Assembly: GCA_035515235.1 (NCBI GenBank)
Contig: DATJBS010000012.1
Coordinates: 25,336-89,335 of the forward strand
Direction: 5' to 3'
Length of the DNA stretch: 64,000 bases
DNA from: Chitinophagales bacterium
GTDB lineage: Bacteria > Bacteroidota > Bacteroidia > Chitinophagales > JADIYW01
Notes under the pieces: generated by a model
Seen by the model: the letters and a program-made list of their open reading frames with translations, nothing else
What the model was told of the DNA's origin: nothing
The model's database searches: none
Part shown: piece by piece, positions 15,122 through 33,620 of the stretch
Numbering within the stretch: the first letter of the stretch is position 1
How the letters are laid out: each line of letters opens with the position of its first letter
Translations under genes and position numbers: made by a program

Positions 15122-16033
15122 ATGAATATTGAAATCGAACACATTTTAACAGGACATGCAGATGCCATTTATTCTTTATGCGCAGGTCATGAAAATCATC
15201 TTTTCTATAGTGGAAGTGCGGATAAATTTGTAGGATGTTGGGATGATACAACTGGTCTATTCTTACATCCACTAGCCAAAACTATTGGTAGTATTTATTC
15301 TTTATATCACGATGCTGAGCGCCAAATATTATATGTAGGAGAAAGAAAAGGAATTGTTCTTCTCATAGACCTTACAAAAGAGCATCCTCCGAAAGCTATT
15401 CAAGCGCATGAAGGCGATGTATTTTCTCTTATCGAAGATCAAAAAAAGCAAATCATCACAGGTGGTGGCGACGGATATTTAAAAGTTTGGACTAAAGATC
15501 TACAACTCATCAAAGCAGTTCATTTATCCAATAAAAATATTCGTAGTATTCGATTATCTGCTGCTACAAATGAAATCCTCGTCGGACTTTCTGACCATAC
15601 GATTCGAGTATTAGACGCAGATACATTTGACACAAAACAGGTCCTAGAAAATCATAAGAATTCAATATTTACAATAGAAATTTTAGAGGACAACAGATTT
15701 GTTAGTGCTGGAAGAGATGCAGTATTTATTGTATGGCAAAGAGAAAATGAGCAATGGATTCACTCTGAAACGATATCAGCACATCTATATACGGTCAATC
15801 ATTTAACACTTTCTCCAAATAAAAAACTATTAGCAAGTGGTAGCAGAGACAAAACCATTAAAATTTGGGATGCAAAAAGTCTCCAATTGTTAAAAGTTTT
15901 AGATCGAGATAAATTTCCTGAAAATCACTCTCATTCTGTCAATAGATTATTGTGGTTGAATGATGAAGTTTTAATTAGTACAGGTGACGATAAAAAGATC
16001 ATCTCCTGGAAATTGATTCAAGATTCAAAATAA
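15122..16033 (+). CDS. WD40-repeat protein
   Basis: 303 aa with reiterated WD-like units (GSADKFVGCWD, GGGDGYLKVW, LSDHTIRVLD, GSRDKTIKIWD, TGDDKKIISW). Confidence 0.8.
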   Translation: MNIEIEHILTGHADAIYSLCAGHENHLFYSGSADKFVGCWDDTTGLFLHPLAKTIGSIYSLYHDAERQILYVGERKGIVLLIDLTKEHPPKAIQAHEGDVFSLIEDQKKQIITGGGDGYLKVWTKDLQLIKAVHLSNKNIRSIRLSAATNEILVGLSDHTIRVLDADTFDTKQVLENHKNSIFTIEILEDNRFVSAGRDAVFIVWQRENEQWIHSETISAHLYTVNHLTLSPNKKLLASGSRDKTIKIWDAKSLQLLKVLDRDKFPENHSHSVNRLLWLNDEVLISTGDDKKIISWKLIQDSK

Positions 16034-17344: not shown

Positions 17345-17586
17345 CAAATTAAAAATGCCCGTCATTGACGAGCATTCATAAAATCTTAAAAAGGTAAAAA
17401 CTTATTTTCCTAAATTATCGATATCCATTTCTATAATAGGATATCCTAATTTTTTCAATGGTTCAAGGACTGTTGCCTTATCTCCTACTACTATGATATA
17501 CATCTGAGAAGGATGGATATAGGAATTATCGATTTGATCTACATCAATTTTAGTCGGTTTATTTAAAATGCTTAACTGTTGATTGA
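17345..17586. repeat. Left 242-bp direct repeat (displaced copy of the M16 peptidase 3' end plus terminator)
   Basis: Colinear with 33379..33620 at a constant 16,034-bp offset. The first ~39 bp, including the hairpin, are identical. Substitutions are scattered through the coding part. Confidence 0.9.
17351..17376 (-). terminator. Rho-independent terminator (duplicate copy), likely ending the island operon
   Basis: Minus strand reads aatgctcgtcaatgacgggcattttt: a ~9-bp stem with one mismatch followed by a T-run. Identical to the copy at 33385..33410. Confidence 0.65.
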
Positions 17587-17656
17587 TTTCAGATAATCTA
17601 AAACTTTGTTTTTTTTCTTCTTTGCTCGTTAAATATTTTATTGAATTTTCAGACAT
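17402..17656 (-). pseudogene. Remnant of the M16 peptidase C-terminus (84-aa ORF)
   Basis: ...LSILNKPTKIDVDQIDNSYIHPSQMYIIVVGDKATVLEPLKKLGYPIIEMDIDNLGK mirrors the last ~60 aa of the 33436..36294 protein. The N-terminal 25 aa are unrelated. Confidence 0.8.
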
Positions 17657-17666
17657 TTTTTGATAT

Positions 17667-18191
17667 TTATACTTTTTCCGTTTCTAAAATCATATTCAAA
17701 AATGATGTTGGTTGAAGGAAGTAGTTTGGGTTTTCTTCCAGTTTTTCCTTTATCAGAATTAGTCCTCCGTTGGTGTAAGATTCCATTGTTTTAATCAACA
17801 ATTTTACCGCATCATCTTCATCCAATTCTCCTTTTTCAAGTGCTACTAGGTCAATGTCTGTTTTTGCTATAAGTGCAATAAATATATTTTCTTGTAAATT
17901 GGTAAAGTCCTTACGATCCAATCTATTTGACTTACTACCCCAAAATTGAATTGCGTGACTAAAATCAACCTTTTTTGAGTTTTCTGGTATCGGACTAAAT
18001 TCTTTATTAAACAGTCCAAGAAAGAAAGCATAAATATACAACTCGTAGTTATTGGCAAACTGCTTTCCTCTATCTTCTTTAGATTGTTCAGAGCCACCAC
18101 CTTTACGGGTCAATTTATCAAACAAAATTTCTCTAAAAGCTATGTCATATTTTGGGATTTTCTCCTTCCATTTTTCAAATAAATTCTTCAT
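17667..18191 (-). CDS. Hypothetical 174-aa, apparently alpha-helical protein (last gene of the island operon)
   Basis: ORF starts 1 nt after the stop of the SMC-like ATPase gene. No motif recognised. May correspond to a dnd/ssp-associated small protein, but I cannot verify that. Confidence 0.6.
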   Translation of the reverse strand: MKNLFEKWKEKIPKYDIAFREILFDKLTRKGGGSEQSKEDRGKQFANNYELYIYAFFLGLFNKEFSPIPENSKKVDFSHAIQFWGSKSNRLDRKDFTNLQENIFIALIAKTDIDLVALEKGELDEDDAVKLLIKTMESYTNGGLILIKEKLEENPNYFLQPTSFLNMILETEKV

Positions 18192-18192
18192 C

Positions 18193-20343
18193 TTATAATG
18201 TGATTACTTGTGAGTTAATTGTTTTCAAGTTGTTTGCATCAAAAGGTCTTTCTAACTTAACCCAAAACGCCTTGTCTCTTCTAACATTCTCAAATTCTTT
18301 TTTGATAGAAAGCGTTTTTGTTGCTTTGTCTGTGTGCAGAAAATCTTTGATAAGAAGAATTTTTTGATTTTCGGTTTCAAAAATCAGGTTCAAAAATTGA
18401 GCTGTTTTGTTTTCTCCAAACGATGAAGTCGGAGCATCAAAAATCATTGGAAAATTTTCTTCTTTAATTTCTGATGCCAATTCAGAAATTGCAAATAAGA
18501 TTGAAATGTGCATTGAGGTTAATAATGATTGGTTTGGTTTATAGAAAGTCCTGCCATCTTCTTGCAATTCTACTTCTACTATTGTCCGATTTACTTTGTT
18601 TCTTCTAGTAAATACAATTGTTCCTGTGAAAGCATCAATATTGATTGTCTTGAAAAAGTTGTTTGATTTTGTTTGAAGCTTCTCAATAAATTCATCAAAT
18701 TTCTTCTCCTTAGTATCTTTAAAAATAGTTTCAATGTCACGTAAAATGTTTCTTGTCTTTATCAAAAAAGAATTGGCTGAACTCGTGTCAATCTTATCTT
18801 TTTCTTCCTTTTTTGCTTTTAACTCAGATTCAAGACTTTTCAATTTTGTTGTATAGTCCACTTGGTCTTGATTCCGATTTTTAAGGTCTCTTTGCCAAGC
18901 ATTGTAATTTTTTAGTACATCACTTAATTTCTCAGCACCAATACTCGAATTACCCAATATTTTCTCTCTTTCAGACTTCTCTTTTTCTAATTGTTCGTTG
19001 AGTTCTTCAATGTCTTTTTTTCGGTCATCATTAAATTCAAAAAGTTCTTTAATTTTAGTTCTTATTAATCTAAGATTTTTAAGGTTATCTTCGTGACTAA
19101 TACTCAAATTATCAAGTCTGTTTGTATAATCGTATTTGAAAAGAGGCTCATCTTTATCGGTTTCATTTTCTTCTGTAACTTGACTTTCTAAATACGTTTT
19201 TAGTCTTTTCATCATAAATTCGTAAGCCTCTGATCCTTTTTTAGCTTCACGATTGCACACTTTGCAAATTTCATCATTTAGCATTTCTTCCATAATAGCT
19301 TTTGAAGGAATGTTATTAGGAAGCGGAATAGCATTATTTAATAATTCTGCTTTGGCTTTTTTTTCTCCCTCTATAATGCCTTTTTGTTTGTCAAATTCTG
19401 ATTGCAATTCTCTTCGTGTTTTACTGTGTGCTGACACTTTTTCTGCAAACTCCTTATGTAAGGGCTCAAAATTGACTAGAATCCAATTTTCGTCAAATAG
19501 TGAAGTAGTGTAGTTTTCATCTATTCTGCCTGCTAAATATGAAATTCTTTCTTCAATGTCCTTAATTCGCTTGTTAAGCGTTTCTAAAGCATCTGCGTTG
19601 CTAACGTGACTTTCTGCTAATTGTAAATTGCCTTCTATTTTTCTGATTTCTTCTTCCGTGGAATTCAAATGAACAAGATACTTTGCTTTCTCTCTCTCCA
19701 AATAAATAATATCCCCTTCAAGCTTTTTATAAAGTGCTTCATTCTTTTTATCAAGCTTTGAAGAATCTTCTACTGCTTTTTCTGCTTTCTCTCGTAAAAA
19801 AGCTCCCTTTTCAGAATATTTATCGTAATGCTTCGCCTCCGAAAATAGATTTATAAGGTTTGCTAATGCACTATCACTTTCAAAAATATTAAGTTCCGCT
19901 TCACCCTTGAACATTGAATATTTCCGAATCTGAAAAGGGAATATTCTGTCCAAAAGAGCTTGACCATCAACCTGTGTTCTTTCACCCGAACTATTTTCAG
20001 AAATGCCTTCAATCATAAAACTTGAAGTCGAACATTCATTTGCTTTTTCTTTTTTTGCGAGGAAAGATTTTGTGATGATACTTTTCTCTCCATATTGTTC
20101 TACAGTCATTGAAACCCTTACACGAAAACTATCACCAATTTCCGTTTCATTCAGTTTTTTGGCAGACACTAGCATATCTAATTCTCGATTCTCTCCATTG
20201 AAAAGCCAATCTACTGATTCAAAGAATTTTGTTTTTCCTTCTCCATTTTCTCCAAGGATAATGTTTAAACCTTCCGATAATTCAAAAGTGTTGGTATCGT
20301 AATAACAGAGGTAATTGTCGATTTGTATTTTTCTGATTATCAT
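18193..20343 (-). CDS. SMC/DndD/Rad50-like coiled-coil ABC ATPase
   Basis: 716 aa. N-terminal head with Walker A GENGEGKTK, a long K/E-rich heptad middle, and a C-terminal Walker-B-like PMIFDAPTSSFGENK. 4-nt overlap with the upstream 76-aa gene. Confidence 0.75.
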   Translation of the reverse strand: MIIRKIQIDNYLCYYDTNTFELSEGLNIILGENGEGKTKFFESVDWLFNGENRELDMLVSAKKLNETEIGDSFRVRVSMTVEQYGEKSIITKSFLAKKEKANECSTSSFMIEGISENSSGERTQVDGQALLDRIFPFQIRKYSMFKGEAELNIFESDSALANLINLFSEAKHYDKYSEKGAFLREKAEKAVEDSSKLDKKNEALYKKLEGDIIYLEREKAKYLVHLNSTEEEIRKIEGNLQLAESHVSNADALETLNKRIKDIEERISYLAGRIDENYTTSLFDENWILVNFEPLHKEFAEKVSAHSKTRRELQSEFDKQKGIIEGEKKAKAELLNNAIPLPNNIPSKAIMEEMLNDEICKVCNREAKKGSEAYEFMMKRLKTYLESQVTEENETDKDEPLFKYDYTNRLDNLSISHEDNLKNLRLIRTKIKELFEFNDDRKKDIEELNEQLEKEKSEREKILGNSSIGAEKLSDVLKNYNAWQRDLKNRNQDQVDYTTKLKSLESELKAKKEEKDKIDTSSANSFLIKTRNILRDIETIFKDTKEKKFDEFIEKLQTKSNNFFKTINIDAFTGTIVFTRRNKVNRTIVEVELQEDGRTFYKPNQSLLTSMHISILFAISELASEIKEENFPMIFDAPTSSFGENKTAQFLNLIFETENQKILLIKDFLHTDKATKTLSIKKEFENVRRDKAFWVKLERPFDANNLKTINSQVITL

Positions 20344-20570
20344 AAAGCCTCATTTAAAAATTGAGTAACTTGGTTTCGCAATACCGAATCCGTAACTGTT
20401 GAAGTGCCGTCCAATCCTTCTACTATCAAAGCAATTGCTTTAATTATTGGCTTGTCAGAATTAAGAGCTTCTCTAATTGTAGAAGGCAATTCTTCTTTAT
20501 TGAATTCATACTTGTTTTCAAGTAGCTCGTGGGTTAAAAAACTTTTGAGTATATCGTCTTTTCTTGCCAT
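20340..20570 (-). CDS. Hypothetical 76-aa protein
   Basis: Small ORF wedged between the helicase gene (10-nt gap) and the ATPase gene (4-nt overlap). No motif recognised. Confidence 0.5.
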   Translation of the reverse strand: MARKDDILKSFLTHELLENKYEFNKEELPSTIREALNSDKPIIKAIALIVEGLDGTSTVTDSVLRNQVTQFLNEAL

Positions 20571-20580
20571 AAGAATAATT

Positions 20581-22785
20581 TTATAAATCGTTAAGGTTTA
20601 GGTTGTAGTAGTCCAATATGCTTTTCAGCTTTTCGTAAGTGTCGGTCTTGTTCATTGCCAGATTAGCAAAGTCAACCACTCGTTCAAGTTCTTTTTTTAC
20701 TAGCCCTTTTTCCATTTCAAAAGTGCTTTCATCTGAAACTTCCGGCACAACTACTAAATCGTGAATGGTTGCGTGAATTTTATCTTTATGCAATCGCAAA
20801 ACTCTGCCTCTTCTTTGGATAAATTGTCTTGGATTACCAGTACTCGCACAAAATATTGCTAGTTCGGAACGTGGAACATCAACACCTTCATCCAAACATT
20901 TCATTGAAGTTAAAACGTGAATATTACTTTGTTCAAAGTTTCTTAAAATTTCCTCTCGGTTGCTTGAATTTGCAGTAAATTGTTTCACCATTACAGAATC
21001 ATCTGTTTGGCTAACTGCCTTGGTATATTCGTTAATCAACCTATTTTCATCTTCGGTTTCAACACTAAAATCTGTTTCATCAAAATTTGCTTCTATGCCC
21101 TCTGGAACATAAATCAATGTATATTTCAGGTTCTTTCGTTTATCAAATTCACTTCTGAGAATCGCTTTGAAAGCTTCTAATTTATTGGCTGCTTTGTGAA
21201 TAATTCGTTTTCTTTCAAGGAGTTTCTTTTCAATTTCAGGAGTACTTCTAAAATTTCCTGTTTCTTTGTCAAATAAGCCCATTCGCAACAGTTGAAGAGA
21301 AAGTTCCTTGTACTTCTCCATTTCTGGGTCTGTTAGCTTTACTATATGCGGATAGTAAGTGTAATTACAAAGCCATCCAATTTTTAAGGCTTCCTCCATT
21401 GAATAGGAAACAATGTATGGCGGCTCATCATTGAAAAACTCTTGAATGGCTTGATTTCCTACTTCGTCAAATTTTCTATGCGGAGTTGCAGATAATCCAA
21501 TTCGTTTTTCAAGATGGATGTTTGGTAGCAATCTTAAAAGTCCTTGAGAACCCAAATTGTGCGTTTCATCTGAAATTAAAATGGTGTCTTTAGGCAGTTG
21601 AGTAAAGTAACTTTGAAACTTTGGTCTTGGCAAAGAAGCATAAGTAACAATGACGATGTAAGAAGTATCAATCAGTTTTGAGGCAGTATTGAAAAATGCT
21701 AGGTTTTTATCCCAATTTTCTTTTGAACTGACGGTAATGATGTTTTTAAAATTGAAATTAGCACATTCTTTTTTCCATTGTTCAACTAAAGCTGTTGTTG
21801 GAACGGTTATAATGGCTCTGTAAATTCCAGTTTTCTTGTATTCATTTAGCAAACAGTTGAGCGAAGTAATCGTTTTACCAGTGCCAGTTGCCATTGCAAA
21901 CATTCCTTTGTAGTTGTTCGCAACCCAGTTTTCGTAAGCTTTTATCTGATAAGGGCGAGGTTTACCACCTTTGGGAAATCTTGGTGTTCTTCTAATGATT
22001 TCAATTTCACTAAAAAGTTTCGTGATTGTTTTTTTCAGTTTGGGGTTTGAAATCAAACTCTGTTTCTTTTTGAGAAGTTGTTCTTCCTGAACAAGTAATT
22101 CATTGATGTCTTTCTTTCCAAATCTATCTTTGAGAACAACTTCAATGTCACTAACAGGGATATATTCAACATCTTCATCTTTTTCAGCGAAATAGTCATC
22201 AATGAGTTTAAGTTGCTTTTTAATCAGTTTGTTTGACCTGCCATTTTCCCAGCTCAAAAAAGCTTCCAGTTGTTCTATGTTTTCAGAAAGACCATAGTAG
22301 GTAAAGTTGCAAGATGCTTGATAGCCAACAGCATCTTGACCATCACTAAAAACGCCTGATTTGTAATGGGCTATTCCTTTTCCGTTTTTGGGTTTGATAA
22401 CCTTTATTTCAATGCGTTTTTCAGCTATTAAATATGCCAAACATTCAAAAAAGTGTGTATCGTATTCATCAAGTACTCTTCCTAGCGAAACAATATCCGT
22501 TAAATCAAATACTCTTATTTCATTTGGATTATCTTCTACTCGGGAAATTGCTTCTTTATCCTTTGCCGAAAGCAAATGATTGATAACCATTTTCATTTTC
22601 CCGCCTTTACTGATAAAAGTGGCAAAGCCAACAGAAAGCAGATTTATAGCGGAAGAACTGAAATAACCTAACAATAAACTAAATTCATTGCTATTGGCTA
22701 ATCCGTCCAAATAGAATTGCAAGGGTTCGTTTTCTGAACCCGTTTTATAATCTCTATCTATTGACCAATCGCAATCTTTAAGCAT
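20581..22785 (-). CDS. PLD-like nuclease domain fused to an SF2 (Res/DEAH-type) helicase
   Basis: 734 aa. N-terminal HKD-like block GIAHYKSGVFSDG...ASCNFTYYGLSENIE. Helicase motifs: I MATGTGKT, II DETH, III SATP, VI QRRGRVLR. 8-nt overlap with the desulfurase gene. Confidence 0.8.
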   Translation of the reverse strand: MLKDCDWSIDRDYKTGSENEPLQFYLDGLANSNEFSLLLGYFSSSAINLLSVGFATFISKGGKMKMVINHLLSAKDKEAISRVEDNPNEIRVFDLTDIVSLGRVLDEYDTHFFECLAYLIAEKRIEIKVIKPKNGKGIAHYKSGVFSDGQDAVGYQASCNFTYYGLSENIEQLEAFLSWENGRSNKLIKKQLKLIDDYFAEKDEDVEYIPVSDIEVVLKDRFGKKDINELLVQEEQLLKKKQSLISNPKLKKTITKLFSEIEIIRRTPRFPKGGKPRPYQIKAYENWVANNYKGMFAMATGTGKTITSLNCLLNEYKKTGIYRAIITVPTTALVEQWKKECANFNFKNIITVSSKENWDKNLAFFNTASKLIDTSYIVIVTYASLPRPKFQSYFTQLPKDTILISDETHNLGSQGLLRLLPNIHLEKRIGLSATPHRKFDEVGNQAIQEFFNDEPPYIVSYSMEEALKIGWLCNYTYYPHIVKLTDPEMEKYKELSLQLLRMGLFDKETGNFRSTPEIEKKLLERKRIIHKAANKLEAFKAILRSEFDKRKNLKYTLIYVPEGIEANFDETDFSVETEDENRLINEYTKAVSQTDDSVMVKQFTANSSNREEILRNFEQSNIHVLTSMKCLDEGVDVPRSELAIFCASTGNPRQFIQRRGRVLRLHKDKIHATIHDLVVVPEVSDESTFEMEKGLVKKELERVVDFANLAMNKTDTYEKLKSILDYYNLNLNDL

Positions 22786-23926
22786 ATTTAAAATTTGGTT
22801 GTGTTAGTTCTTTGATTTTGCTAATCACTGTTTCTATGTCTTCAATTGAGTTGTATTTTCCTAAGGAAAACCGTAAAGATGCAAACGCATCACCATCACA
22901 TAAACCCATTGCTTTCAAAACGTGTGAGGGTTCAATTACTGCTGAAGAACAAGCAGAACCATTGGAAACTGCAATATTTTTCATTCTGCCAATCAAAACA
23001 TTGGCATCCTGTCCTTTGAAACAAATGTTGGTGGTGTTGAAAATTCTGTTTTCTGAATCACCATTTAGTGAAGTATTTTGCAGTTTTAAAAATTCAGTTT
23101 CGAGTTTGTCTTTTAGTTCAGAAATGTTCCTTTTATTCAAATCCATTTCTTCACTAGCTATTTCACAAGCCTTTGCTAAGGCAATAATTCCAGGTACATT
23201 GAGTGTGCCGCTTCTCAAACCTTGTTCGTGACCGCCTCCGTGAATTTGTGGGGAGAGTTTTGTTTTATTTCTTACATACAAGGCTCCGATTCCTTTTGGG
23301 GCATACATTTTATGACCACTAAAACAAAGTAAATCAATACATAAATCATTAACATCAATTTCAATTTTACCAACTGCTTGAGTGGCATCTGTCATAAACA
23401 AAGCTCCTTTTTCGTGAGCTAGTTTAGCAATTTCTTTGATGGGTTGAATTACTCCAGTTTCGTTATTGATATACATAACGGAAACTAAAACAGTATCAGG
23501 TCGAATGGCTTTTTGAAGTTCTGCTAAATCAATCAATCCATTAGGTTGAACTGTTAAATAAGTAACTTCAAAACCTTTTCTTTCTAAGTCTTTGCAAGTG
23601 TCTAAAACCGCTTTGTGTTCGGTTGAAATGGTGATGATGTGTTTTCCTATATTAGAATAGCTTTCTGCAACACCTTTTATGGCAATATTGATCGCTTCTG
23701 TTGCTCCACTTGTAAAAATCAGTTCATTCGGTTCTGCATAGATAAAATCAGCTATTTGCTCTCGGGCTTGTTTTACTTTTTCATTGATGTTTTGACCAAA
23801 ATGGTGGGAACTGCTTGCATTGGCAAAGTTGTCCTTTAAAAAAGGCAACATAGCTTCAAGCACCCTTGGATCGATGGGGGTGGTGGAATTGTAGTCGAGA
23901 TATGATATGTTTCGAAATTTATTCAT
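22778..23926 (-). CDS. sspA: IscS/NifS-type (group I) cysteine desulfurase, SspA/DndA-like by context
   Basis: 382 aa. PLP-Lys FSGHKMYAPKGIGALY and catalytic loop SNGSACSS...EPSHVL. Embedded in the phosphorothioation-type operon. Confidence 0.7.
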   Translation of the reverse strand: MNKFRNISYLDYNSTTPIDPRVLEAMLPFLKDNFANASSSHHFGQNINEKVKQAREQIADFIYAEPNELIFTSGATEAINIAIKGVAESYSNIGKHIITISTEHKAVLDTCKDLERKGFEVTYLTVQPNGLIDLAELQKAIRPDTVLVSVMYINNETGVIQPIKEIAKLAHEKGALFMTDATQAVGKIEIDVNDLCIDLLCFSGHKMYAPKGIGALYVRNKTKLSPQIHGGGHEQGLRSGTLNVPGIIALAKACEIASEEMDLNKRNISELKDKLETEFLKLQNTSLNGDSENRIFNTTNICFKGQDANVLIGRMKNIAVSNGSACSSAVIEPSHVLKAMGLCDGDAFASLRFSLGKYNSIEDIETVISKIKELTQPNFKYA

Positions 23927-23934
23927 TCAAAAAT

Positions 23935-24675
23935 CTATGCTTTGTGTATGTGAGGATTAAGATTGAAAGGCTCAAATCCTTGTTCAAAAGTTGTATCAGG
24001 TAAACTATTCCAGACTGACGATAATACTAAATAATATGGTTTCCAAAGTCTTTGTTGTGAGTTGAAAACTATTTCTTTATACCTTGAGTCTTCAATAAGT
24101 TTATATACTTTTTCTGATGGAAAATAATTTTGTAAAATAAAATCAATACCCAATATTACATCCATTGGAGGATAAGCAATTCGCGGGGTAGGAAGAATTA
24201 ACGCTGAACCAAAACTGTCTACACCTTTTTGCTCCAACTTATTTCCCCCAAAAGTTAAATGATATTCGGGATGGATATAGGTGTAATTAGGACTTTTAAT
24301 ATTTTTATCTAAATGCCAAGAGGCATAAAAAACATCAATTTTGTCAGGTAAATCACGGTATCCTTCTAATTCAATGTCAAAACTTAAATCCCTTAAAGGG
24401 TTACATACATTATTTAGATCATTTTGAAAAATACCAGCAAGTGAAATATTGAAAACTATGTCAATTAAATTTACTTTTTGAGGTATTGAACCTGCGACAC
24501 AACCTTCAATAGAAAACTTCAAACTACCACATTCATAATTCCATTCTGAAATATTTTGAGAGCATTGTAACTTTGCAGAAGCATCAAACAAGCTTTTGGC
24601 ATCTTGTATAATATTGTTGGAAGTTAGCAATACAGCAAAATCAAAAATATCTATAGCTAGTATTTGACAATTCAT
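23935..24675 (-). CDS. Hypothetical 246-aa protein (third gene of the kinase/REC triad)
   Basis: ORF starts 2 nt after the REC-like gene and ends 8 nt before the desulfurase gene. No recognised family. His/aromatic-rich patch WHLDKNIKSPNYTYIHPEYHLTFGG. Confidence 0.6.
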   Translation of the reverse strand: MNCQILAIDIFDFAVLLTSNNIIQDAKSLFDASAKLQCSQNISEWNYECGSLKFSIEGCVAGSIPQKVNLIDIVFNISLAGIFQNDLNNVCNPLRDLSFDIELEGYRDLPDKIDVFYASWHLDKNIKSPNYTYIHPEYHLTFGGNKLEQKGVDSFGSALILPTPRIAYPPMDVILGIDFILQNYFPSEKVYKLIEDSRYKEIVFNSQQRLWKPYYLVLSSVWNSLPDTTFEQGFEPFNLNPHIHKA

Positions 24676-24677
24676 TT

Positions 24678-25823
24678 TTATGGTCTTACGTTAGGGTATT
24701 GTTTTTGTAATATTTCTAGTTTGTATTCCTCAGACGGAGATAACTTTTTCCACTTATCTTTGCCTTTTGGTTTCAAGGCTTCTTCATAACAAACATATTT
24801 TTTGTCCTGCCACGGGTAATAGTTGTCTTGGCCATCAACTAACAATCCATCAACTGTATCAATAGAAACACCAGAACCAACGCATTTAGTCCAAAAAGCT
24901 TCACTTTTCGCCTTTTCATTTTTCTCTATTGGTACTAATCCGGGTAATTCTAACTTCTCCTTCAAAAGATCTACTTTCTGACTTGCAGTTGTAGCTCTTA
25001 AACTATTTTTTAATTCTAACTCCGTTCTCCACCAATGTTCAATTCCACTCATCCACCATCTCTCCCATCCTTCACTAAAAACACCACGATATTGGTATTT
25101 CTTTAAATTCTCTAAAACATTTTTCCAATCACTTGATTTAAAAATATCAATGCCAAGTCGAGTTGCTAGTATTTCTTCGGTAATTAAAATTCCCGAAACT
25201 GGGATATTTGATTTGTCAAGAAGATTTTTGATAATAAAGTTCGAAACTGTATGTGTAGGATATCCTATAACTGCTCTCATTTCACTTATAAAACGATTAT
25301 TCTCTAATTCCAAATTATATTTATATAATTCAATAAGGTTGTTATCATCATTTTTACATTTTGAAATTAGCTCATAACCGATTGAAAGACTTATCAGTTT
25401 CTGTCTCAACGGAGCAAATAGAATTGGGTCGTTAAGCCATTCTCTTGGAACTATTAGGTCAAATAAATCTTCATTTGTTCGATCAAAATACTTTTCAAGG
25501 TTCACAGTGGCAGACAATAAAACAATTGGAATTTCTTTTAATCTCCCTGCTTTTGATAAATTTCTATACTCTTGTGCCAATGAAGATCCTTTATAATGAG
25601 ATGTTTCCTTATCTTTATTTGGCATTTCTTCAAGATTTAAATCAAGAATCAACCCTTCGTAACTTTTAAATTCATCTGATAATATTCTTTCACGTTCTTT
25701 CTCCCAATCTCCTTTAGGATTATCAAAATCAATTGAAAGCACTCCTTCTTTTTGAAGGCCTGTAATAATACCCTTTGCATTGAGCTCACTATTATCGTCT
25801 ATATATAAATATTTACAAGTCAT
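24678..25823 (-). CDS. REC-like (receiver) domain protein with unknown Trp-rich C-terminal domain
   Basis: 381 aa. The N-terminal ~125 aa fit a receiver layout: YLYIDDN (acidic pair D9/D10), GLILDLNLEEMP (D61 at the phospho-acceptor position), IPIVLLSA (S104). The C-terminal ~250 aa are unassigned (GWERWWMSGIEHWW). 11-nt overlap with the kinase-like gene. Confidence 0.6.
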   Translation of the reverse strand: MTCKYLYIDDNSELNAKGIITGLQKEGVLSIDFDNPKGDWEKERERILSDEFKSYEGLILDLNLEEMPNKDKETSHYKGSSLAQEYRNLSKAGRLKEIPIVLLSATVNLEKYFDRTNEDLFDLIVPREWLNDPILFAPLRQKLISLSIGYELISKCKNDDNNLIELYKYNLELENNRFISEMRAVIGYPTHTVSNFIIKNLLDKSNIPVSGILITEEILATRLGIDIFKSSDWKNVLENLKKYQYRGVFSEGWERWWMSGIEHWWRTELELKNSLRATTASQKVDLLKEKLELPGLVPIEKNEKAKSEAFWTKCVGSGVSIDTVDGLLVDGQDNYYPWQDKKYVCYEEALKPKGKDKWKKLSPSEEYKLEILQKQYPNVRP

Positions 25824-27990
25824 ATTGTTCTAATTCTTCTTTTTGCGCTTTAGGAAGTTCAATTCTAAAGCAAGTGTTATAACCATTTTCTGGGATAATA
25901 ATTTTTATAATACCTCCGTAATCTTCGATAATGTCTTTAATAATCTTCAAACCTAAACCAGTTCCTGTTAATTTTTCATCTGAGGGTGAATCAAATCCAG
26001 CAGGAGTTGATGTTGTGAAAAAAGCATTAAAGACCCGATTTTTATTTTCTTCAGGAATACCGTCTCCGTTATCGTGAATTTCTAAATATATTCTGTTGTT
26101 ATCTTCACCAGTTATTATTCTAATTTTTCCTGAATTTCCCGAACGTTTTATTGCTTTTTTTGAATTAGTATATAGGTTATACAAAATCGAACTCCACTCG
26201 GAAATATGCATTAGAGTGGTATAAAGATTGTAACCATAGGAGTCTAAAAGCAGTTCTGTATTTTGCCTTTCAAGGTCATCTTTAATATTTTTAATGAAAC
26301 GTTCAACAACATCAGTTATTAAAACAGGTTTAATTTCTCTGCTTGTGTTTTCAGATACTGTTGCATTAAAGTAAGACGTATAAGATGTGAAATTCGCAAA
26401 CGTCATTTTTAAATTATCAAGAAGTTCTATTGTTTTTAAATCATTTTCACTTGATTCATAAAGTTTAGCTATATAACCATTTATAGATGGTGTAAATTGA
26501 ATTATTTCGTGAGTAAACTCTCCAATAGTCAATCCTAATGAAGCTAGAATTCTAAGCATACTGAGCTCTTCAATGACCTCATAGTACTTTTCTTTTATAC
26601 TTTTAATGGCTTCCTTAGCAGTCTCATTTAAATCTTCTTTATCAACCTCTTCAAATTCCTCTTCAATTGTTTTTTTCTCTGGAATATCCTCTAAATTATC
26701 GTCCACATCCACCGGAGTTTGCTCTCCTTTTTTAAGTAAAGAAATTTTCTCAGATATTCTTCCCTTTGCTGCCTCAAATGCTTTCTGAAGAAAATCAGTA
26801 AGCTCGTAGAAGGCGTCATTTTCGATCAATCCCTCCCTACTTGCAGTCTCTTGAAACATTTCACCTTCTTTATCGATAATTTCGACAAAGCCAAATAAAT
26901 TTCTATTGCTTAGAGGAATATTTCCTTGACCAGATTGAAATGTATATCTTTTATCAAAATATAGCCAATCATTTTTTGGTTCCCCATAAGGCAGAACTCT
27001 AAAGCCGTTTCTGTAAAGTCTTATACCACTGCTTTCTTGAGAAAGTTTATAAATATTTTTTAACTCAAGTTGTGAAATATTAAGATAATATTCCTGTCGA
27101 TTATATATAAAATAGTAAGCTTTAAAGTGAATGTTTTTTAATTTATCAAATCTGCTAGAATTATCTGATTTATGAATCTGTATAGCATAATCGTCTAAAT
27201 TTAATTTTTCACTTTTAACCCCAAAAAATCCGTCTCCCAATGCATCTACAAAGCCTTCAATAACTGCTACATTCTTATTAAATAACATTTTCTCAGGACT
27301 TGCTATTTCATAAGTTACACCATCAATTATATTAGAAAACTTTACTTTGAAGGACTCATCATTCTGTTTTGCAAGGTTTAATGATTGACTACTTTCAGAA
27401 AGATAATCAGGTTGAAACAGATCCGAAACATATCTGTAAATTCTTTTTATTGAAGCTTCAGTCCAACCTTCTCTTAGGTCTTTAATGATTAAAGTTGTAC
27501 CTTCTAGCTTTTCCTTTGGTATATAGTCAATTTGGTTATTGATTGCAGAAATATCCTGATCGACTGTATAATTATTCCAGTCAATAGTAAGTTTTATTGC
27601 TTGTTCCGATTCTAGCGTTTGAGTTATAATAATTAATTTCTTTCCAAGTCTTTGTGTGGCAAATCTTCCAATTCCTTTTTTTCCCGCTCGACTTCGTTTA
27701 TATCGAGAAGATAATGGATTATGCACTTTATCTGTTGATGAGATAGTCATAAATCCCAACCTGAGTTGTTCTAATGTCATTCCAAGTCCATCATCAATTA
27801 TCTCTAACGTTCCACCACTCCATAAAGAATCCATAAAATTTACCTCAACATTTTTTGCATCCGCATCATATGCATTTTTGACTAATTCTGAAACCGCTGT
27901 TTCTGCCCTACCGACTAGCTCTTTTCCTAATCTATCAATCAAACCTGCATCTACCGAAAATGCAATACTATTTGGTGATTTTTCTTCCAT
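25813..27990 (-). CDS. Soluble double-GHKL protein: N-terminal MORC/Hsp90-like ATPase plus C-terminal histidine-kinase core
   Basis: First GHKL: ELVKNAYDADA, IIDDGLGM, GKKGIGRF. A putative H-box GEFTHEIIQF sits after an acidic coiled linker. Second GHKL: NLYTNSKKAI, IHDNGDGI, FNAFFTT, GTGLGLKI. No TM segments. ATG at 27990 (MEEKSPNS) is preferred. The track start at 28041 would overlap the upstream gene by 41 nt. Confidence 0.7.
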   Translation of the reverse strand: MEEKSPNSIAFSVDAGLIDRLGKELVGRAETAVSELVKNAYDADAKNVEVNFMDSLWSGGTLEIIDDGLGMTLEQLRLGFMTISSTDKVHNPLSSRYKRSRAGKKGIGRFATQRLGKKLIIITQTLESEQAIKLTIDWNNYTVDQDISAINNQIDYIPKEKLEGTTLIIKDLREGWTEASIKRIYRYVSDLFQPDYLSESSQSLNLAKQNDESFKVKFSNIIDGVTYEIASPEKMLFNKNVAVIEGFVDALGDGFFGVKSEKLNLDDYAIQIHKSDNSSRFDKLKNIHFKAYYFIYNRQEYYLNISQLELKNIYKLSQESSGIRLYRNGFRVLPYGEPKNDWLYFDKRYTFQSGQGNIPLSNRNLFGFVEIIDKEGEMFQETASREGLIENDAFYELTDFLQKAFEAAKGRISEKISLLKKGEQTPVDVDDNLEDIPEKKTIEEEFEEVDKEDLNETAKEAIKSIKEKYYEVIEELSMLRILASLGLTIGEFTHEIIQFTPSINGYIAKLYESSENDLKTIELLDNLKMTFANFTSYTSYFNATVSENTSREIKPVLITDVVERFIKNIKDDLERQNTELLLDSYGYNLYTTLMHISEWSSILYNLYTNSKKAIKRSGNSGKIRIITGEDNNRIYLEIHDNGDGIPEENKNRVFNAFFTTSTPAGFDSPSDEKLTGTGLGLKIIKDIIEDYGGIIKIIIPENGYNTCFRIELPKAQKEELEQYDL

Positions 27991-28000
27991 ATTAGTAGTT

Positions 28001-29104
28001 TTATATAAAACAAGACGCACAACCTTCACCCTCTGCATCATCTAAGATGTCCACTAGGTAAGGTGATTTTGCTTTTGATTTTCTTTCCATTCTTTTAATG
28101 TACTCTTCCTTTATGGCAGCTATTCTTGTGGGCTGAATTAATTCTTCCAAACTTTCAAATTGACCCCAAGTGTAGCCGTCTTTCTCGTATTCCATTGCTT
28201 TTTTATACAACTCAGGGTGTTGTTCGTATAACCAAACCCATTCAATTTTTTGCTGGAAAAAGCAAAAGAAACAGCCAGAACGACTTCTTGCGTATTCTCC
28301 TTTTTTTCCGTTAATCTCAAATTCAATTTTGTTGTAGTAGGCAGGAACCCCCACACCGCTTTCTTCGAGTATTCTGAAAATATCTTCTCGAACCAATACT
28401 TCATCATTATCTAATAATGGGAAGGAAGCTTCAGTTGCTAAAGGATAATCAGTCGTTTTCAAAAAGTCAAAAACCAAATGATTAAATGCTTTCACATTGG
28501 CATCTAATAAAATATTGAGCTTTTGGTCTATTGTGAAACTTGAATCCACTTTTCGAGAAATAGTTTGAAACGCTTTTTCTTGATTTTTGCCAAAGTCTAT
28601 ATTCTTGGACATTGTTAAAAGTTGCTCCATATTTTGGTTGGCTAGCAATTTTGTGACAACATCTTGACTCCAAATATTCTTACGAAATGGGAATATGGAT
28701 TGAATATTTTTTTTGGTTGAAATATAGCCTTCTCTTTCTTCATCACCTCTGATACCTACATAAGAAACTACTGGATCAGTGCCGACATACTTTTCAAAAG
28801 GATCAAGTTTCAGTTTCTTAGTACACCAGCGTGCATTAGGTGAAGGTAAAAAACCTCCAAGCATTTTCACAAAGTGATCGAATGGGTCTTCCGAACTGTT
28901 TTCAGCACCTTTTAACAATTGTATCTTTATTCCAAGATGTGTTTGTAAATTTTCAATTAATTGATAGGTTTCGTCAAGTTCCTTACCTGTATCGCAGGTA
29001 TAGAATTCTAAATCAATAGACGGATATTTCGTTTTGACATAAATAGCCAAAGCAGCACTGTCTTTCCCTCCTGATATACCTAATACGTGTCTTACTTTGC
29101 TCAT
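28001..29104 (-). CDS. sspD: PP-loop ATP pyrophosphatase / PAPS-reductase family protein, SspD-like
   Basis: 367 aa. PP-loop GISGGKDSAALAIY and Cys pairs SGCFFCFF and GCASCFI. ATGA overlap with the upstream ATPase gene. Confidence 0.7.
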   Translation of the reverse strand: MSKVRHVLGISGGKDSAALAIYVKTKYPSIDLEFYTCDTGKELDETYQLIENLQTHLGIKIQLLKGAENSSEDPFDHFVKMLGGFLPSPNARWCTKKLKLDPFEKYVGTDPVVSYVGIRGDEEREGYISTKKNIQSIFPFRKNIWSQDVVTKLLANQNMEQLLTMSKNIDFGKNQEKAFQTISRKVDSSFTIDQKLNILLDANVKAFNHLVFDFLKTTDYPLATEASFPLLDNDEVLVREDIFRILEESGVGVPAYYNKIEFEINGKKGEYARSRSGCFFCFFQQKIEWVWLYEQHPELYKKAMEYEKDGYTWGQFESLEELIQPTRIAAIKEEYIKRMERKSKAKSPYLVDILDDAEGEGCASCFI

Positions 29105-32100
29105 TGTAATAATTCTTTAAGTAGGTTCAAGACAGCCGCAATATTTGAAGTATTGTCTTTGCCCAGTTTGTTTTTCAATTCGTTCTTCAATTCCTCAATC
29201 TCTTTGCTTTTGTTTTTTGGAACCCTTACCACTTTCGGGTCAATTTTGCTAAAGAACGAATCAATTTTAACTCCTATCACTTCTTCTTTGCTTTCGTCAA
29301 TATCCGACTTTGAGATTTTCGTCAAACTATCCAATTCCAAAATCATTGCTTTAAATTTTTCGTAAAGCAAAATTTCATCTTCGTCTGTAAAGGCTTCCAA
29401 TGTTTTACCTGTTACTGCTTGTGCTATAGAGTTCAGCCAAGCTTTTCGGTCGTCTAAAGGCGAATCCAATCTTTGTACAAATGTCTTTTGATTACTCAAA
29501 AGCATATGCTTTTTCAATTTTGTGAATCGCTTTTGTAAATACGCTTTGTATTCTTCAAAGTCGGAAGTTTGCCCAACAAATTCACTACAAATGAAATCCT
29601 CAAAACGCTTTACCAATTCATCATAAGCAGTTCGTAGTTCTCTTACGGAATCTTGTAAACTGGTTGTAAAGCTTTGAAGTTTAGATTTATCTTGTTGTAA
29701 AGTGGAAAGCGTTAAACCCAAAGCAGTTGGGAAAGCATCAAAAAATGTTTCTTCGGGGTCTTTACTTGTTGCAATAGCTTTTCTAATCTTGATAGCTGAT
29801 GGTGAAAGCCTTTTTGTGTTCTTACTGTATTCTGGTAACTGTTTGTAGAAAACAATAAATGGTTTTATAGTTTCAATAAAAGAGTTGTTATCGAATTTTT
29901 GTTCGGTTGCAATGTTTAAGAATGTTCGATAACTATTGAAAATATCAAGCTTTACACCTTCAATATCAAATGTTTTTATAGAATACTTTTCAGGATATTT
30001 GGCTATTAATTCCAAGTTCTCTTCTGACAAGTTAGGGATGTAACTTTCGTCATTGAAAATGGCGAAATCATCTCGTTTCAAAAACAAGAATGTAGGAACC
30101 CAAAAGTCAATCAACCCTTGTTTTAGTTTGAAAGGTCTTTTGCTCAGTAATTCACTTAATTCTGAGATTTTGAGTTGTTCAGATTTGGCACTTTCTAAAA
30201 AGTCTTCTGAAGCACTCCAAAGTTTGTAGAATGTAGAAGTTCTATCTATAGAAATTACATCTGTTGCATTTTCTCTAATTGGCGAAATGCCGCTTTCTTT
30301 TAAAAGGGATAAATAAATGGTTTTTTCGGGCGGAAATTTAGAATCATCAAAGCCTATATTTTCCTGGTCCCAATGGTTAGCTAAGGCTGAAAAATATCGT
30401 TTCTTAGCTGTATGAATAGATGAAGAAATCTTATGTTTATTTACTAATTCGTTTTTAAAAACAGGGGTAGCATCATACACAATATTACAAACTTGAGAAA
30501 GTAGTTTATTGAAGTCCTTTTTATCAGCAATTTTCTTTTCCTCTCCATTAAAGTACCACTTTACATTTTCATTTTCAGTGAAAAGTCCTTTATTTGAAAT
30601 ATGATGATTAAGAATATTTTTTTGTGAATTCACAATGCTTTCTAACTCTCTTTTTGCTACTTTATCATCTTTGTTTTCTTCCAAAACTTTTTCAGATTTT
30701 TCAATCTCAAAAAGTAGATTTTTTATCTCATCTGTGTTTTTGAAGTAACAGTATATTACAGCTTCTTCTTGTTGCTTTGATTTGTTTTTAATGTCATTTT
30801 CTTTCAACTTACTATTAAAAACAAGATTTACAATCCCATCAATTTCACCTGTTGGGAAATAATTATCAGGATAATCCGAAATTCGAAATTCGAAATATCT
30901 TGGTGTACCTGTAGAGAAAGAATATTGTTTAGCAAAAACTGGATTGAATTGAATATGTTTATTCAGAAGTGTAGTAATATCAACCACTTCCGAAATTTTA
31001 TTGCCCGCTTCAATCAATGCGGTTTGAATGTCTAAATCTGTACCTTCAAATAGAATGAATCGTTTTGAATGGGTACGGTAGCGGATAATATTCTTTGTTT
31101 CAAGATTCTTAATGACTTCTTTGGCATCCGATACACCACAGGCAGTTTTTAAATAATCAATAAAGAAATTCAGATCCAAGATTGAACCACTTGCAGAGAA
31201 AATATTCAAAAGTCCAATCGTTTTTACTGCTTTGATATAATCATTGATATTTGAATCAAATGCTCTTTCCACTTCTTCAATAGATGAACGAATGGAACTC
31301 CAAGCAGAAAAATCGGGATTGTATTTTGATGTTAAAAACGAATAGAAATTAAAATTTAGGTAATCGTAAACATTTGACAGATTGTAGAACGGATTTTCCT
31401 TTTTGTTGAATTTTGCCAATCCTGTATGATCTGACGATTCAAGAAATGAAAACAATGAACGTTCATTTTGACCGTATCTCTGCAATGAAAGTGTGAGTAT
31501 ATTTGCTGAAAGAATATCAAGTGGATATAGCTTTGAAGCAATTTCTTTTAAGTAATCTTTATTAAAGTTAAATGCCTTTGTTTCGGTAGTTAGCTTTAAG
31601 CATTTATCAATTTCTGATTTTGAAGTTTTGGATTCAAAATGCTCAGCAACATATTCCGAAGCTAAAAATAAAAGTTGTTCAACAGGCTCGTTAAAAGTAA
31701 TTTCACGGAAGCGACCTTTTACTTTTGTCCATTCTTGTTGTTGGTTTTTGCTTAGTGAATAAGCATAAGATTCCAAACTTTGGTGAACTGTGGTAATTAA
31801 AACAATATTGTGCTTTGGATTATTACAAAATTCTGCAAGTTGCTGAACAAAGTATAATTCTTTTTCAGGATTGTGTTTACTCGCATACTCTAAAAATTTA
31901 CCAAACTCATCTATGAGAATAAATAAAACCTTGTTTTCTTTTCCAATGGAATGGTAGCGGTTAAATATTTCTGAAAGAATATTTTCTTGTAGATTCTTCA
32001 CCGAATGCACTTCAAAGGTATCTGCAAATTGTTCTACAATTGAAGCGTAAGAACCAATTAATTTTACAAAATCAAACTTTGGCTTATCAAGGAAATTAGG

Positions 32101-32322
32101 TTCAAAGTAACGTTTCGTTCCTATAATACTCTGCTCAAATGCCAAAAGAAAAGAAGATTTACCTGTTCCATAAGTACCAACTACATTAAAAGAACGTATC
32201 CCTTTTTTAAAGTCGTTAACTATTTGGCTAACAACTTGACTCGCATTGGGAGTTGGGATGTAGTTGAAATCCCTATCAGTGTCCCTTATAATATTTACCG
32301 ATGTTGTGAAATTATTTGCCAT
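29101..32322 (-). CDS. sspC: Large P-loop NTPase, SspC-like by position
   Basis: 1073 aa. Walker A GTYGTGKSS and Walker B LFILIDEFGK. Sits between the DUF4007-like and PP-loop genes with 11-nt and 4-nt overlaps. Confidence 0.6.
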   Translation of the reverse strand: MANNFTTSVNIIRDTDRDFNYIPTPNASQVVSQIVNDFKKGIRSFNVVGTYGTGKSSFLLAFEQSIIGTKRYFEPNFLDKPKFDFVKLIGSYASIVEQFADTFEVHSVKNLQENILSEIFNRYHSIGKENKVLFILIDEFGKFLEYASKHNPEKELYFVQQLAEFCNNPKHNIVLITTVHQSLESYAYSLSKNQQQEWTKVKGRFREITFNEPVEQLLFLASEYVAEHFESKTSKSEIDKCLKLTTETKAFNFNKDYLKEIASKLYPLDILSANILTLSLQRYGQNERSLFSFLESSDHTGLAKFNKKENPFYNLSNVYDYLNFNFYSFLTSKYNPDFSAWSSIRSSIEEVERAFDSNINDYIKAVKTIGLLNIFSASGSILDLNFFIDYLKTACGVSDAKEVIKNLETKNIIRYRTHSKRFILFEGTDLDIQTALIEAGNKISEVVDITTLLNKHIQFNPVFAKQYSFSTGTPRYFEFRISDYPDNYFPTGEIDGIVNLVFNSKLKENDIKNKSKQQEEAVIYCYFKNTDEIKNLLFEIEKSEKVLEENKDDKVAKRELESIVNSQKNILNHHISNKGLFTENENVKWYFNGEEKKIADKKDFNKLLSQVCNIVYDATPVFKNELVNKHKISSSIHTAKKRYFSALANHWDQENIGFDDSKFPPEKTIYLSLLKESGISPIRENATDVISIDRTSTFYKLWSASEDFLESAKSEQLKISELSELLSKRPFKLKQGLIDFWVPTFLFLKRDDFAIFNDESYIPNLSEENLELIAKYPEKYSIKTFDIEGVKLDIFNSYRTFLNIATEQKFDNNSFIETIKPFIVFYKQLPEYSKNTKRLSPSAIKIRKAIATSKDPEETFFDAFPTALGLTLSTLQQDKSKLQSFTTSLQDSVRELRTAYDELVKRFEDFICSEFVGQTSDFEEYKAYLQKRFTKLKKHMLLSNQKTFVQRLDSPLDDRKAWLNSIAQAVTGKTLEAFTDEDEILLYEKFKAMILELDSLTKISKSDIDESKEEVIGVKIDSFFSKIDPKVVRVPKNKSKEIEELKNELKNKLGKDNTSNIAAVLNLLKELLQ

Positions 32323-33196: not shown

Positions 33197-33350
33197 CTTT
33201 TCTTATGAAATCAATTTTTATAAGCTACAAAGTAACCAAATTATTCATTTTAATTGAGGAAAAACTACATTAGTAATTATCCTATTTTTCAAAGAAGTTA
33301 TATTGCACTTTATATAATGACTGTAAGTGTTTGGACTTGATGGTTGAGAT

Positions 33351-33378: not shown

Positions 33379-33620
33379 CAAATTAAAAATGCCCGTCATT
33401 GACGAGCATTCATAAAAACTTGAAGGATAAAAAATCTATTTTTCTAAATTATCGATATCCATTTCTATTACGGGATATCCTAATTTTTTCAAAGGCTCAT
33501 GAACTGTTGCTTTATCTCCGACCACTATAATGTACATCTGAGAAGGATGGATATAAGTCTTCGTAATTTGATCTACATCACTTTTAGTCAGTTTATTTAA
33601 AATGCTTAACTGTTGATTGA
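33379..33620. repeat. Right 242-bp direct repeat (functional 3' end plus terminator of the M16 peptidase gene)
   Basis: Partner of 17345..17586. Confidence 0.9.
33385..33410 (-). terminator. Rho-independent terminator of the M16 peptidase gene
   Basis: Minus strand aatgctcgtcaatgacgggcattttt, 26 nt downstream of the stop codon. Confidence 0.65.

Follow-up and report, generated by a model that had tools for sequence, protein, structure and literature searches.

PbeABCD is a four-protein defence module associated with DNA phosphorothioate (PT) modification. Its only characterised representative, the DndCDEA-PbeABCD system of the haloarchaeon Haloterrigena (Natrinema) jeotgali A29, cuts plaque formation about 10^4-fold, and each of the four pbe genes is needed (Xiong et al. 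2019, PMC6459918). Activity requires the PT modification itself and not the Dnd proteins, a PT-modified virus escapes, and viral DNA replication is halted with no visible degradation; the module is non-toxic when PT is absent (PMC6459918). Here we describe genes of this type in a Chitinophagales bacterium (assembly GCA_035515235.1). The window, that is the whole stretch of DNA analysed, is 64,000 nt long and covers positions 25,336-89,335 of contig DATJBS010000012.1. Four packed open reading frames (ORFs) on its minus strand, at 20581-22785 (734 aa), 20340-20570 (76 aa), 18193-20343 (716 aa) and 17667-18191 (174 aa), correspond to pbeA, a gene in the pbeB position, pbeC and pbeD. We consider it probable (roughly 75%) that they serve as the effectors in a PT defence island in which SspABCD, and not DndCDEA, is the writer. 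The Pbe gene family is known; the pairing of Ssp with Pbe in one operon is what appears to be new.

The same set of genes has been described under the name of CxC ABC ATPase-DndE anchored conflict systems (Rakesh et al. 2024, PMC10853773). The part of that paper devoted to these systems lists, as found here, an HKD-superfamily 2 (SF2) helicase fusion, a small protein that evolves fast, an ABC ATPase whose coiled coil of about 400 residues bears a Cys hook at its tip, and a partner that is a DndE cognate; in contrast to the CxC systems, the hook of PbeC here reads C-x-x-C. The partners named in the same part are DndD-centred PT modules, cytosine methylases or none, and an Ssp partner is not among them. 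The SspABCD-SspE and SspABCD-SspFGH systems (PMC8092258) share the writer genes of the present locus and likewise encode their effector beside the writer, but the effector here is the four-protein Pbe set.

Two surveys left gaps on either side of this pairing. Neither sspE nor sspFGH accompanies 83.9% of sspBCD clusters, and further partners were expected (Wang et al. 2021, PMC8092258). Conversely, 320 of 553 pbeAC pairs (58%) were classed as "solitary" in 2019 (PMC6459918). That survey predates the description of Ssp and, as far as its accessible part indicates, scarcely sampled Bacteroidetes: among the entries listed in its supplementary PbeAC table, Bacteroides ndongoniae and Belliella baltica are the two from this group, and the genera of the present loci do not appear. 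No publication pairing Ssp with Pbe was found, and the works found list both as separate systems; Krishnan et al. 2020 and the 2020 SspE paper lay outside our coverage and may hold a prior mention.

Identification of a PbeABCD-type module

The locus shows the same four-gene order and sizes as that of strain A29: a helicase-nuclease of ~730 aa, a small protein (66 aa in A29, 76 aa here), a coiled-coil ABC ATPase and a partner (152 aa in A29, 174 aa here). As in A29, the module comes directly downstream of genes for a cysteine desulfurase and a PT writer, and the PbeA, PbeC and PbeD families match. It differs from A29 in its writer, which is SspB/C/D/A and not DndC/D/E, in its bacterial lineage (Bacteroidota), and in that PbeB, PbeC and PbeD have diverged so far that their single sequences give no confident matches. 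The same four genes, with products of ~734, 69-85, 709-730 and 152-188 aa, are present in all complete related loci found, which speaks for their reality.

An initial annotation, made from the nucleotide sequence, had described the four ORFs with their sizes and several motifs as well as an 8-nt overlap with the desulfurase gene; the ORF list and a motif check agree with it on all these points. It had also proposed a restriction partner for PT modification, leaving open whether the genes are SspFGH homologues, and had suggested a comparison with PbeABCD. Once made, this comparison identified the four genes as PbeABCD-type and upheld the proposal, with a full-length match of PbeA (E=0), PbeC models as the top family, matches of the PbeD family and the A-B-C-D gene order. 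The SspFGH option was not borne out: with the 11 island proteins, the PADLOC models of SspF/G/H, DndF/G/H and SspE gave no match at E<=0.01.

Other identities were considered. A match of PbeC to the Lamassu LmuB model PDLC03859 (E=2.5e-15) is attributed to generic similarity of Rad50/SMC heads; PbeC models score equally or better, and the island contains neither LmuA nor LmuC. Rad50 and LmuB do resemble PbeC in that the ABC head is split by a coiled coil, and Rad50 also shares the CxxC zinc hook. They differ from it by their partners (no Mre11, LmuA or LmuC occurs here), the coiled coil is shorter here, and the context is a PT island and not a repair operon. A DNA-repair complex (Rad50/XPB-like) was rejected: only the ATPase and helicase cores give such matches, and the genes sit in a mobile PT island. 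For ABC-3C, no such model was among the matches from the libraries searched, and no test aimed at ABC-3C was made, the assignments of PbeA, PbeC and PbeD rendering one superfluous. On these family comparisons, the four genes are classified as a PbeABCD-family module and not as SspFGH, DndFGH or Lamassu.

The Pbe proteins

PbeA (20581-22785) combines an HKD nuclease of the phospholipase D (PLD) fold with an XPB-like SF2 helicase. It matches the PADLOC model PDLC02706 with E=0 and 1111 bits, its residues 11-727 covering the full length of the 722-position model. It also matches TIGR04095 (dnd_restrict_1, "DNA phosphorothioation system restriction enzyme") with 401.6 bits, under the cut-off of 600, and the Pfam profiles ResIII (E=1.5e-23), Helicase_C (E=2.7e-12) and DEAD. 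The N-terminal nuclease domain (approximately aa 20-200, 22186-22728) is recognised by NF042964, "phospholipase D-like anti-phage protein" (aa 23-172, E=1.2e-10). Structure modelling, suggested in the initial annotation, points the same way: the AlphaFold2 model of residues 1-200 (pLDDT 75.5) matches PLD restriction nucleases in Foldseek, the best PDB matches being the NgoAVII R-protein (4rct, E=4.9e-6) and SauUSI (7clg, E=6e-6), followed by other members of the PLD family, NucT, Zucchini and BfiI (E between 5e-6 and 4.5e-4 overall). The ATP-dependent type IV restriction enzyme SauUSI has the same layout as PbeA, with a single-HKD PLD nuclease at the N-terminus and an SF2 motor after it. However, SauUSI is a single polypeptide that carries its own target-recognition domain and attacks modified cytosine DNA, whereas PbeA lacks such a domain and has PbeB-D as partners.

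The catalytic HKD motif spans aa 139-171 (AHYKSGVFSDG...SCNFT...NIE; 22273-22371), with AHYKSGVFSDG beginning at aa 139 and NFTYYGLSENIE at aa 160. In an alignment with ten homologues, the most distant at 25-29% identity, H140, K142, S158, N160 and E171 are invariant. The same holds for the motifs of the SF2 core (approximately aa 270-680, 20746-21978): motif I, MATGTGKT at aa 298 (A299-T305 invariant); motif II, DETH at aa 406 (D406, E407 and H409); motif III, SATP at aa 432 (S432-P435); and motif VI, QRRGRVLR at aa 657 (Q657-R664; QRRGRxLR in the alignment). The nearest solved structures of this core are archaeal XPB/Rad25. Judged by these motifs, both the HKD nuclease and the SF2 motor of PbeA are intact, and the model match, the invariant motifs and the PLD fold agree with the HKD endonuclease-SF2 helicase fusion that characterises PbeA.

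PbeC (18193-20343) is a Rad50/DndD-like ABC ATPase that has a coiled-coil insert and a zinc hook, and its best PADLOC match is PDLC02741. Pfam recognises AAA_23 and SMC_N in its heads. When 14 lineage members, some of them just 20-25% identical to the window protein, were scanned singly, PbeC models were the top family for 13 of them (best E ~3e-29), and the profile of the family finds Rad50 ATPase heads as the nearest solved structures (E=2e-11). In the alignment of these 14 sequences, N33, G36 and K37 of the Walker A motif (GENGEGKT, aa 31-38, 20230-20253) are invariant, as are D636, A637, P638, S640 and F642 of the Walker B/D-loop region (MIFDAPTSSFG, aa 633-643, 18415-18447). Between them, at the exact midpoint of the protein and of its coiled coil, both cysteines of C360-K-V-C363 (19255-19266) are invariant down to 20% identity, together with P342 and P346 that precede them. 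From its position and conservation, this pair is read as a Rad50-type zinc hook and not as an SMC hinge. The "SMC/DndD-like" label first given to this protein is thus kept for its Rad50/DndD likeness and abandoned for the SMC type. An ABC ATPase carrying an inserted coiled coil of ~400 residues capped by a Cys zinc hook is the description given for PbeC, and the 716-aa protein is accordingly placed, by profile and motif comparison, as a divergent PbeC. At the Q-loop (aa 144-148) the window protein and all 7 close homologues aligned carry a Lys in place of the expected Gln (MFKGE), while a divergent PbeC subgroup retains FQGE.

PbeD (17667-18191) belongs to the TIGR04062 family (dnd_assoc_4, "DNA phosphorothioation-associated protein 4"), a membership seen through its homologues: the profile matches 17 of 17 aligned PbeD sequences (best E 9.1e-12). 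All of them fall under the curated cut-off of 74 bits, so that they form a divergent branch of the family. Its AlphaFold2 model is mostly helical (pLDDT 85), as the initial annotation had anticipated. A PADLOC search at E<=10 returned nothing useful for PbeD.

The gene in the pbeB position (20340-20570) encodes an acidic protein of 76 aa (pI 4.8) and is recognised by position and size. Every complete related locus has an ORF of 69-85 aa between pbeA and pbeC, with the exception in size of L043, where it measures 103 aa. Identity to the 76-aa protein is 58-96% in close loci and 19-29% in a divergent subgroup, M1 alone being invariant. PbeB is described as small and rapidly evolving, with 66 aa in the type system (PMC6459918 and the relevant part of PMC10853773), and the 76-aa protein fits this description by its position between pbeA and pbeC, its size (within ~60-100 aa) and its evolutionary rate only. 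PADLOC at E<=10 gave no useful match for it. The single match obtained, to Csx1 (E=0.004), was treated as a chance hit.

Operon organisation and the Ssp writer

The island comprises 11 co-directional genes on the minus strand, four ssp genes, three genes in a variable slot and four pbe genes, in the order sspB-C-D-[slot]-sspA-pbeA-B-C-D. The gene sspB (32312-33196) encodes a DUF4007 protein (PADLOC SspB, E=2.3e-123; Pfam DUF4007, E=4e-77), sspC (29101-32322) a large ATPase (PADLOC SspC PDLC02776, E=0, 1723 bits), sspD (28001-29104) a PAPS-reductase-type sulfurtransferase (PADLOC SspD, E=2.4e-91) and sspA (22778-23926) a cysteine desulfurase of the SspA/DndA type (PADLOC SspA, E=1.7e-168; DndA, E=6.3e-167). 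Ssp writers are reported to place single-strand PT, with an ORC/Cdc6-like ATPase and a triple winged helix-turn-helix SspB. DndC (TIGR03183) has no match in the whole 3.45-Mb genome, and Ssp is therefore the only PT writer detected. The DndC/DndD/DndE neighbours of the original DndCDEA-PbeABCD system are replaced here by SspB, SspC, SspD and SspA.

Genes are tightly packed across the junction of the two modules and within the second one. The desulfurase gene shares 8 nt (22778-22785) with pbeA, which couples the Pbe module to sspA in translation; a gap of 10 nt separates pbeA from pbeB, pbeB and pbeC overlap by 4 nt, and pbeC and pbeD are 1 nt apart. Close junctions and the A-B-C-D order, which is kept in all complete loci found, are those of a PbeABCD transcription unit. 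A hairpin scan of the 16.8-33.7 kb region detected only two terminator-like hairpins on the minus strand, both of them copies of a repeat at the island borders; none lies inside the island, nor between sspA and pbeA. This is consistent with a single transcription unit of 11 genes. A sigma-70 promoter scan was uninformative (78 sites against 65 expected), Bacteroidota promoters deviating from the sigma-70 consensus.

The variable slot between sspD and sspA (23935-28041) is delimited by a break in nucleotide homology and encodes a double-GHKL histidine-kinase-like protein of 742 aa and proteins of 381 and 246 aa. Homology to related loci ends at ~23890-23936 and restarts at ~27975-28005, except in three loci that carry the same trio (L023, L024 and L027). 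As nucleotide homology is confined to the island and interrupted between sspD and sspA, the island moves as a unit with a replaceable slot. Elsewhere the slot holds at least six other co-directional cassettes, or none: it is empty in 6 loci, and otherwise contains a 175-189-aa protein with a DndB-like protein in 7 loci, a GmrSD_N/DUF262 protein with a Ser/Thr kinase in 5-6 loci, and three genes, one of them for a BrxC/D-like ATPase, in 3 loci; further contents are a SIR2_2 protein and an Mrr-type nuclease. By their family assignments the slot genes are all of the defence type; Pbe is the constant partner and the slot a hypervariable one within a fixed operon. In a distant lineage, at 25-29% identity, a homologue of the double-GHKL/HEF_HK protein lies directly after pbeD and not in the slot (L043, 3620-5992, minus strand; L044, 14239-16599, plus strand), and the kinase-like protein is thus again linked to Ssp and Pbe, under a different gene order.

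Distribution and evolution of Ssp-Pbe loci

For PbeA, database clusters at 91-98% identity number more than 120. When species-representative genomes were scanned, 40 loci were obtained, all from Bacteroidota save three fragments on contigs of alphaproteobacterial metagenome-assembled genomes (MAGs). Local tblastn searches with the window proteins showed that sspB-sspC-sspD-(slot)-sspA-pbeA-pbeB-pbeC-pbeD is colinear in about 34 of 37 informative loci; the linkage to ssp genes in other genomes, on which the initial annotation had made its proposal depend, is therefore found. Of 401 Bacteroidota genomes sampled evenly, 9 have PbeA and 15 have SspC; in each of the 6 genomes having both, the two lie no more than 10 kb apart on one contig. 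Close relatives of the present genome lack both PbeA and SspC, as expected for horizontal transfer. The distant lineage mentioned above (L043 and L044) again shows the order sspB-C-D-pbeA-B-C-D.

The cassette does not evolve uniformly. Within the main clade, which spans several Bacteroidota orders, identity to the window proteins is 77-96% for PbeA, 59-98% for PbeC and 66-90% for PbeD. The cassette of Cyclobacterium plantarum (L001) is nearly identical to that of the window. In a subgroup of seven loci (L027-L029, L031-L033 and L036) PbeA is still 57-64% identical, with PbeC at 21-25% and PbeD at 27-37%; L034, on a short contig that ends within pbeC, has a PbeC of 34% identity. These identities indicate that PbeB, PbeC and PbeD make up a sub-module whose divergence or exchange outpaces that of the motor-nuclease PbeA, as expected for parts that recognise DNA or meet phage proteins.

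Several loci depart from this pattern. Two Pbe cassettes have no Ssp or Dnd writer nearby (L041 in genome G047 and L042 in genome G399); their PbeA is 42-43% identical, and one or two DndB-like (PF14072) proteins flank them. PbeA of L042 lacks the N-terminal nuclease part (481 aa). A locus of Chryseobacterium sp. R2A-55 (L021, 3048-10000) contains pbeABCD (PbeA 96% and PbeC 98% identical) and sspB; sspC, sspD and sspA were not detected there, and ~7 kb of other genes stand in their stead. The three alphaproteobacterial fragments (L038-L040, on MAG contigs labelled Caulobacterales, Asaia bogorensis and Rhizobium sp.) contain the start of pbeA, coding for 74 aa that are 89-91% identical, and sspD. 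These Bacteroidota-type fragments on contigs binned as Alphaproteobacteria could be binning errors or decayed transfers.

Proposed mechanism and alternative explanations

The function of an Ssp-linked Pbe module we infer by homology. SspA, SspB, SspC and SspD would put PT marks on host DNA. A PbeC dimer, Rad50-like and joined by its zinc hooks, would scan or loop DNA with PbeD as a DndE-like DNA-binding partner and read its PT status. PbeA, once licensed, would translocate by its XPB-like motor and either nick or cleave unmarked invader DNA with its PLD nuclease or stall its replication as a roadblock. The acidic 76-aa PbeB might act as an adaptor or a brake. By analogy with the archaeal system (PMC6459918), host PT would be needed, PT-modified phages would escape and the module would be non-toxic without the writer. 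A lack of self-toxicity, which the initial annotation took as an argument against a PT-dependent module, is for this reason not applicable here: in the only characterised Pbe system, absence of PT led to loss of activity (PMC6459918). In the part of Rakesh et al. that treats these systems, the HKD domain is argued to imply that DNA is cleaved, and the ATPase-DndE pair to scan it (PMC10853773).

Several points weigh against assigning this effector role to the four genes. The functional model is carried over, by analogy, from a haloarchaeal Dnd system that writes double-strand PT. No viral DNA cleavage was seen by Xiong et al., so that the nuclease step is disputed between the two sources (PMC6459918 vs PMC10853773). 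The window PbeC, taken singly, matches its model weakly and over its N-terminal half only (E=5.5e-16, 56 bits), and the Lys at its Q-loop may make its ATPase chemistry atypical or alter ATP hydrolysis. PbeD of the window matches TIGR04062 at E=1e-3, far under the curated cut-off. It is described as a DndE cognate in the relevant part of Rakesh et al. (PMC10853773), a likeness not confirmed here: no DndE was found when the PbeD profile was compared with PDB sequences, and in Foldseek DndE (4lrv) comes third without significance (E=3.3, probability 0.23, TM 0.51 on the DndE length). Finally, the GHKL-kinase trio of the slot is a second candidate effector, whose role cannot be separated from that of Pbe by sequence alone.

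One alternative, proposed for this class of systems in the same part of PMC10853773, is abortive infection: PbeB would restrain PbeA until a phage factor removes or modifies it, PbeA would then cut the cell's own DNA so that the infected cell dies, and PT would only tune the placement of PbeC and PbeD. The rapid evolution of PbeB, with M1 alone invariant and 19-29% identity where PbeA retains 57-64%, is typical of components in contact with phage. However, the PbeB of the window is predicted to be helical and is 58-96% conserved in the main clade, with no obviously disordered decoy, and the escape of PT-modified virus and the halt of replication without DNA degradation in the archaeal system (PMC6459918) fit self/non-self discrimination better. 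We therefore regard suicide as unlikely, although it is the strongest of the competing explanations. Pbe might also be an independent defence system that merely shares an island with Ssp, responding to some other cue, or to a methylase encoded elsewhere in the genome, and not reading PT. The writer-less cassettes L041 and L042, with only DndB-like neighbours, agree with this, as do the 320 "solitary" pairs among the 553 of the 2019 survey (PMC6459918) and the argument, made in the part of PMC10853773 cited above, that modules are often functionally decoupled. Against such independence stand the 8-nt overlap of sspA and pbeA with no terminator between them, strict colinearity in ~34 loci, the proximity of both modules in 6/6 genomes of the even sample, a linkage kept at 25-29% identity, and an island that moves as a unit with sharp borders at which homology ends. 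Chance co-location would not preserve gene order so far, and these same features, which support the linkage as a whole, make independence improbable.

It is also conceivable that PbeC and PbeD serve the writer, as a DndD-DndE-like pair selecting sites for SspBCD with PbeA as an accessory motor, and hence that the genes contribute to modification and not to restriction. PbeC and PbeD are presented as the sister pair of DndD and DndE of the Dnd writer in the relevant part of PMC10853773, and among the conserved genes of the main clade pbeD varies most (66-90% identity), as a specificity subunit might. However, SspB and SspC already fill the roles of DNA recognition and ATPase, and SspBCD modifies DNA without Pbe in Escherichia coli (PMC8053081); the archaeal DndCDEA produced PT with the pbe genes deleted (PMC6459918), and an HKD nuclease would be out of place in a writer. 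We consider this the least credible of the explanations and give it very little weight. An effector arm reading the marks of SspABCD is the explanation we prefer.

Implications of the Ssp-Pbe pairing

More tentatively, and with odds that we put slightly under even, the arrangement sspB-C-D-[slot]-sspA-pbeA-B-C-D may be a distinct and widely transferred class of PT defence, summarised as "one writer, several readers". Pbe would be the constant reader of the single-strand Ssp mark, through its zinc-hook ATPase/DndE-like pair, which has no counterpart in the Ssp writer, and the slot would accommodate interchangeable second effectors. If so, the pairing would explain part of the ~84% of sspBCD clusters that appear as "orphans" and part of the 58% of pbeAC pairs that appear as "solitary", thereby linking the two survey gaps, sspBCD without a restriction partner (PMC8092258) and pbeAC without a modification partner (PMC6459918). 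It also raises a mechanistic question, since Pbe has been characterised with double-strand Dnd marks: can the single-strand PT of Ssp be read by Pbe, with PbeC-PbeD as the reader? The cassette measures ~11.5 kb without the slot, and as PbeA is conserved throughout the main clade, a single cloned cassette would be representative of many genomes. The slot, set in a fixed operon, constitutes a natural experiment on the exchange of accessory defence genes.

Island borders and flanking genes

A 242-nt direct repeat (87% identity between copies) borders the island on both sides and duplicates the 3' end and the terminator of an M16 peptidase gene. The right copy (33379-33620) is the 3' end and terminator of that gene itself, as seen in the repeat search and the hairpin scan; the left copy (17345-17586) includes a copy of the M16 terminator hairpin at 17353-17377. 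No related locus aligns outside positions 17595-33294 of the window at the nucleotide level, and the flanks are housekeeping genes, the M16 peptidase gene and an OsmC-like gene. An 84-aa ORF adjoining pbeD (17402-17656) was considered as a fifth gene of the module and rejected, as it is a decayed copy of the M16 C-terminus (aa 879-967 of the peptidase, 63% identical) inside the direct repeat. Just outside the island, on the plus strand, lies a gene for a 303-aa WD40-repeat protein (15122-16033); its match to the PADLOC model HEAT-ARM_XIII is weak (E=9e-16), and it is probably unrelated to the island.

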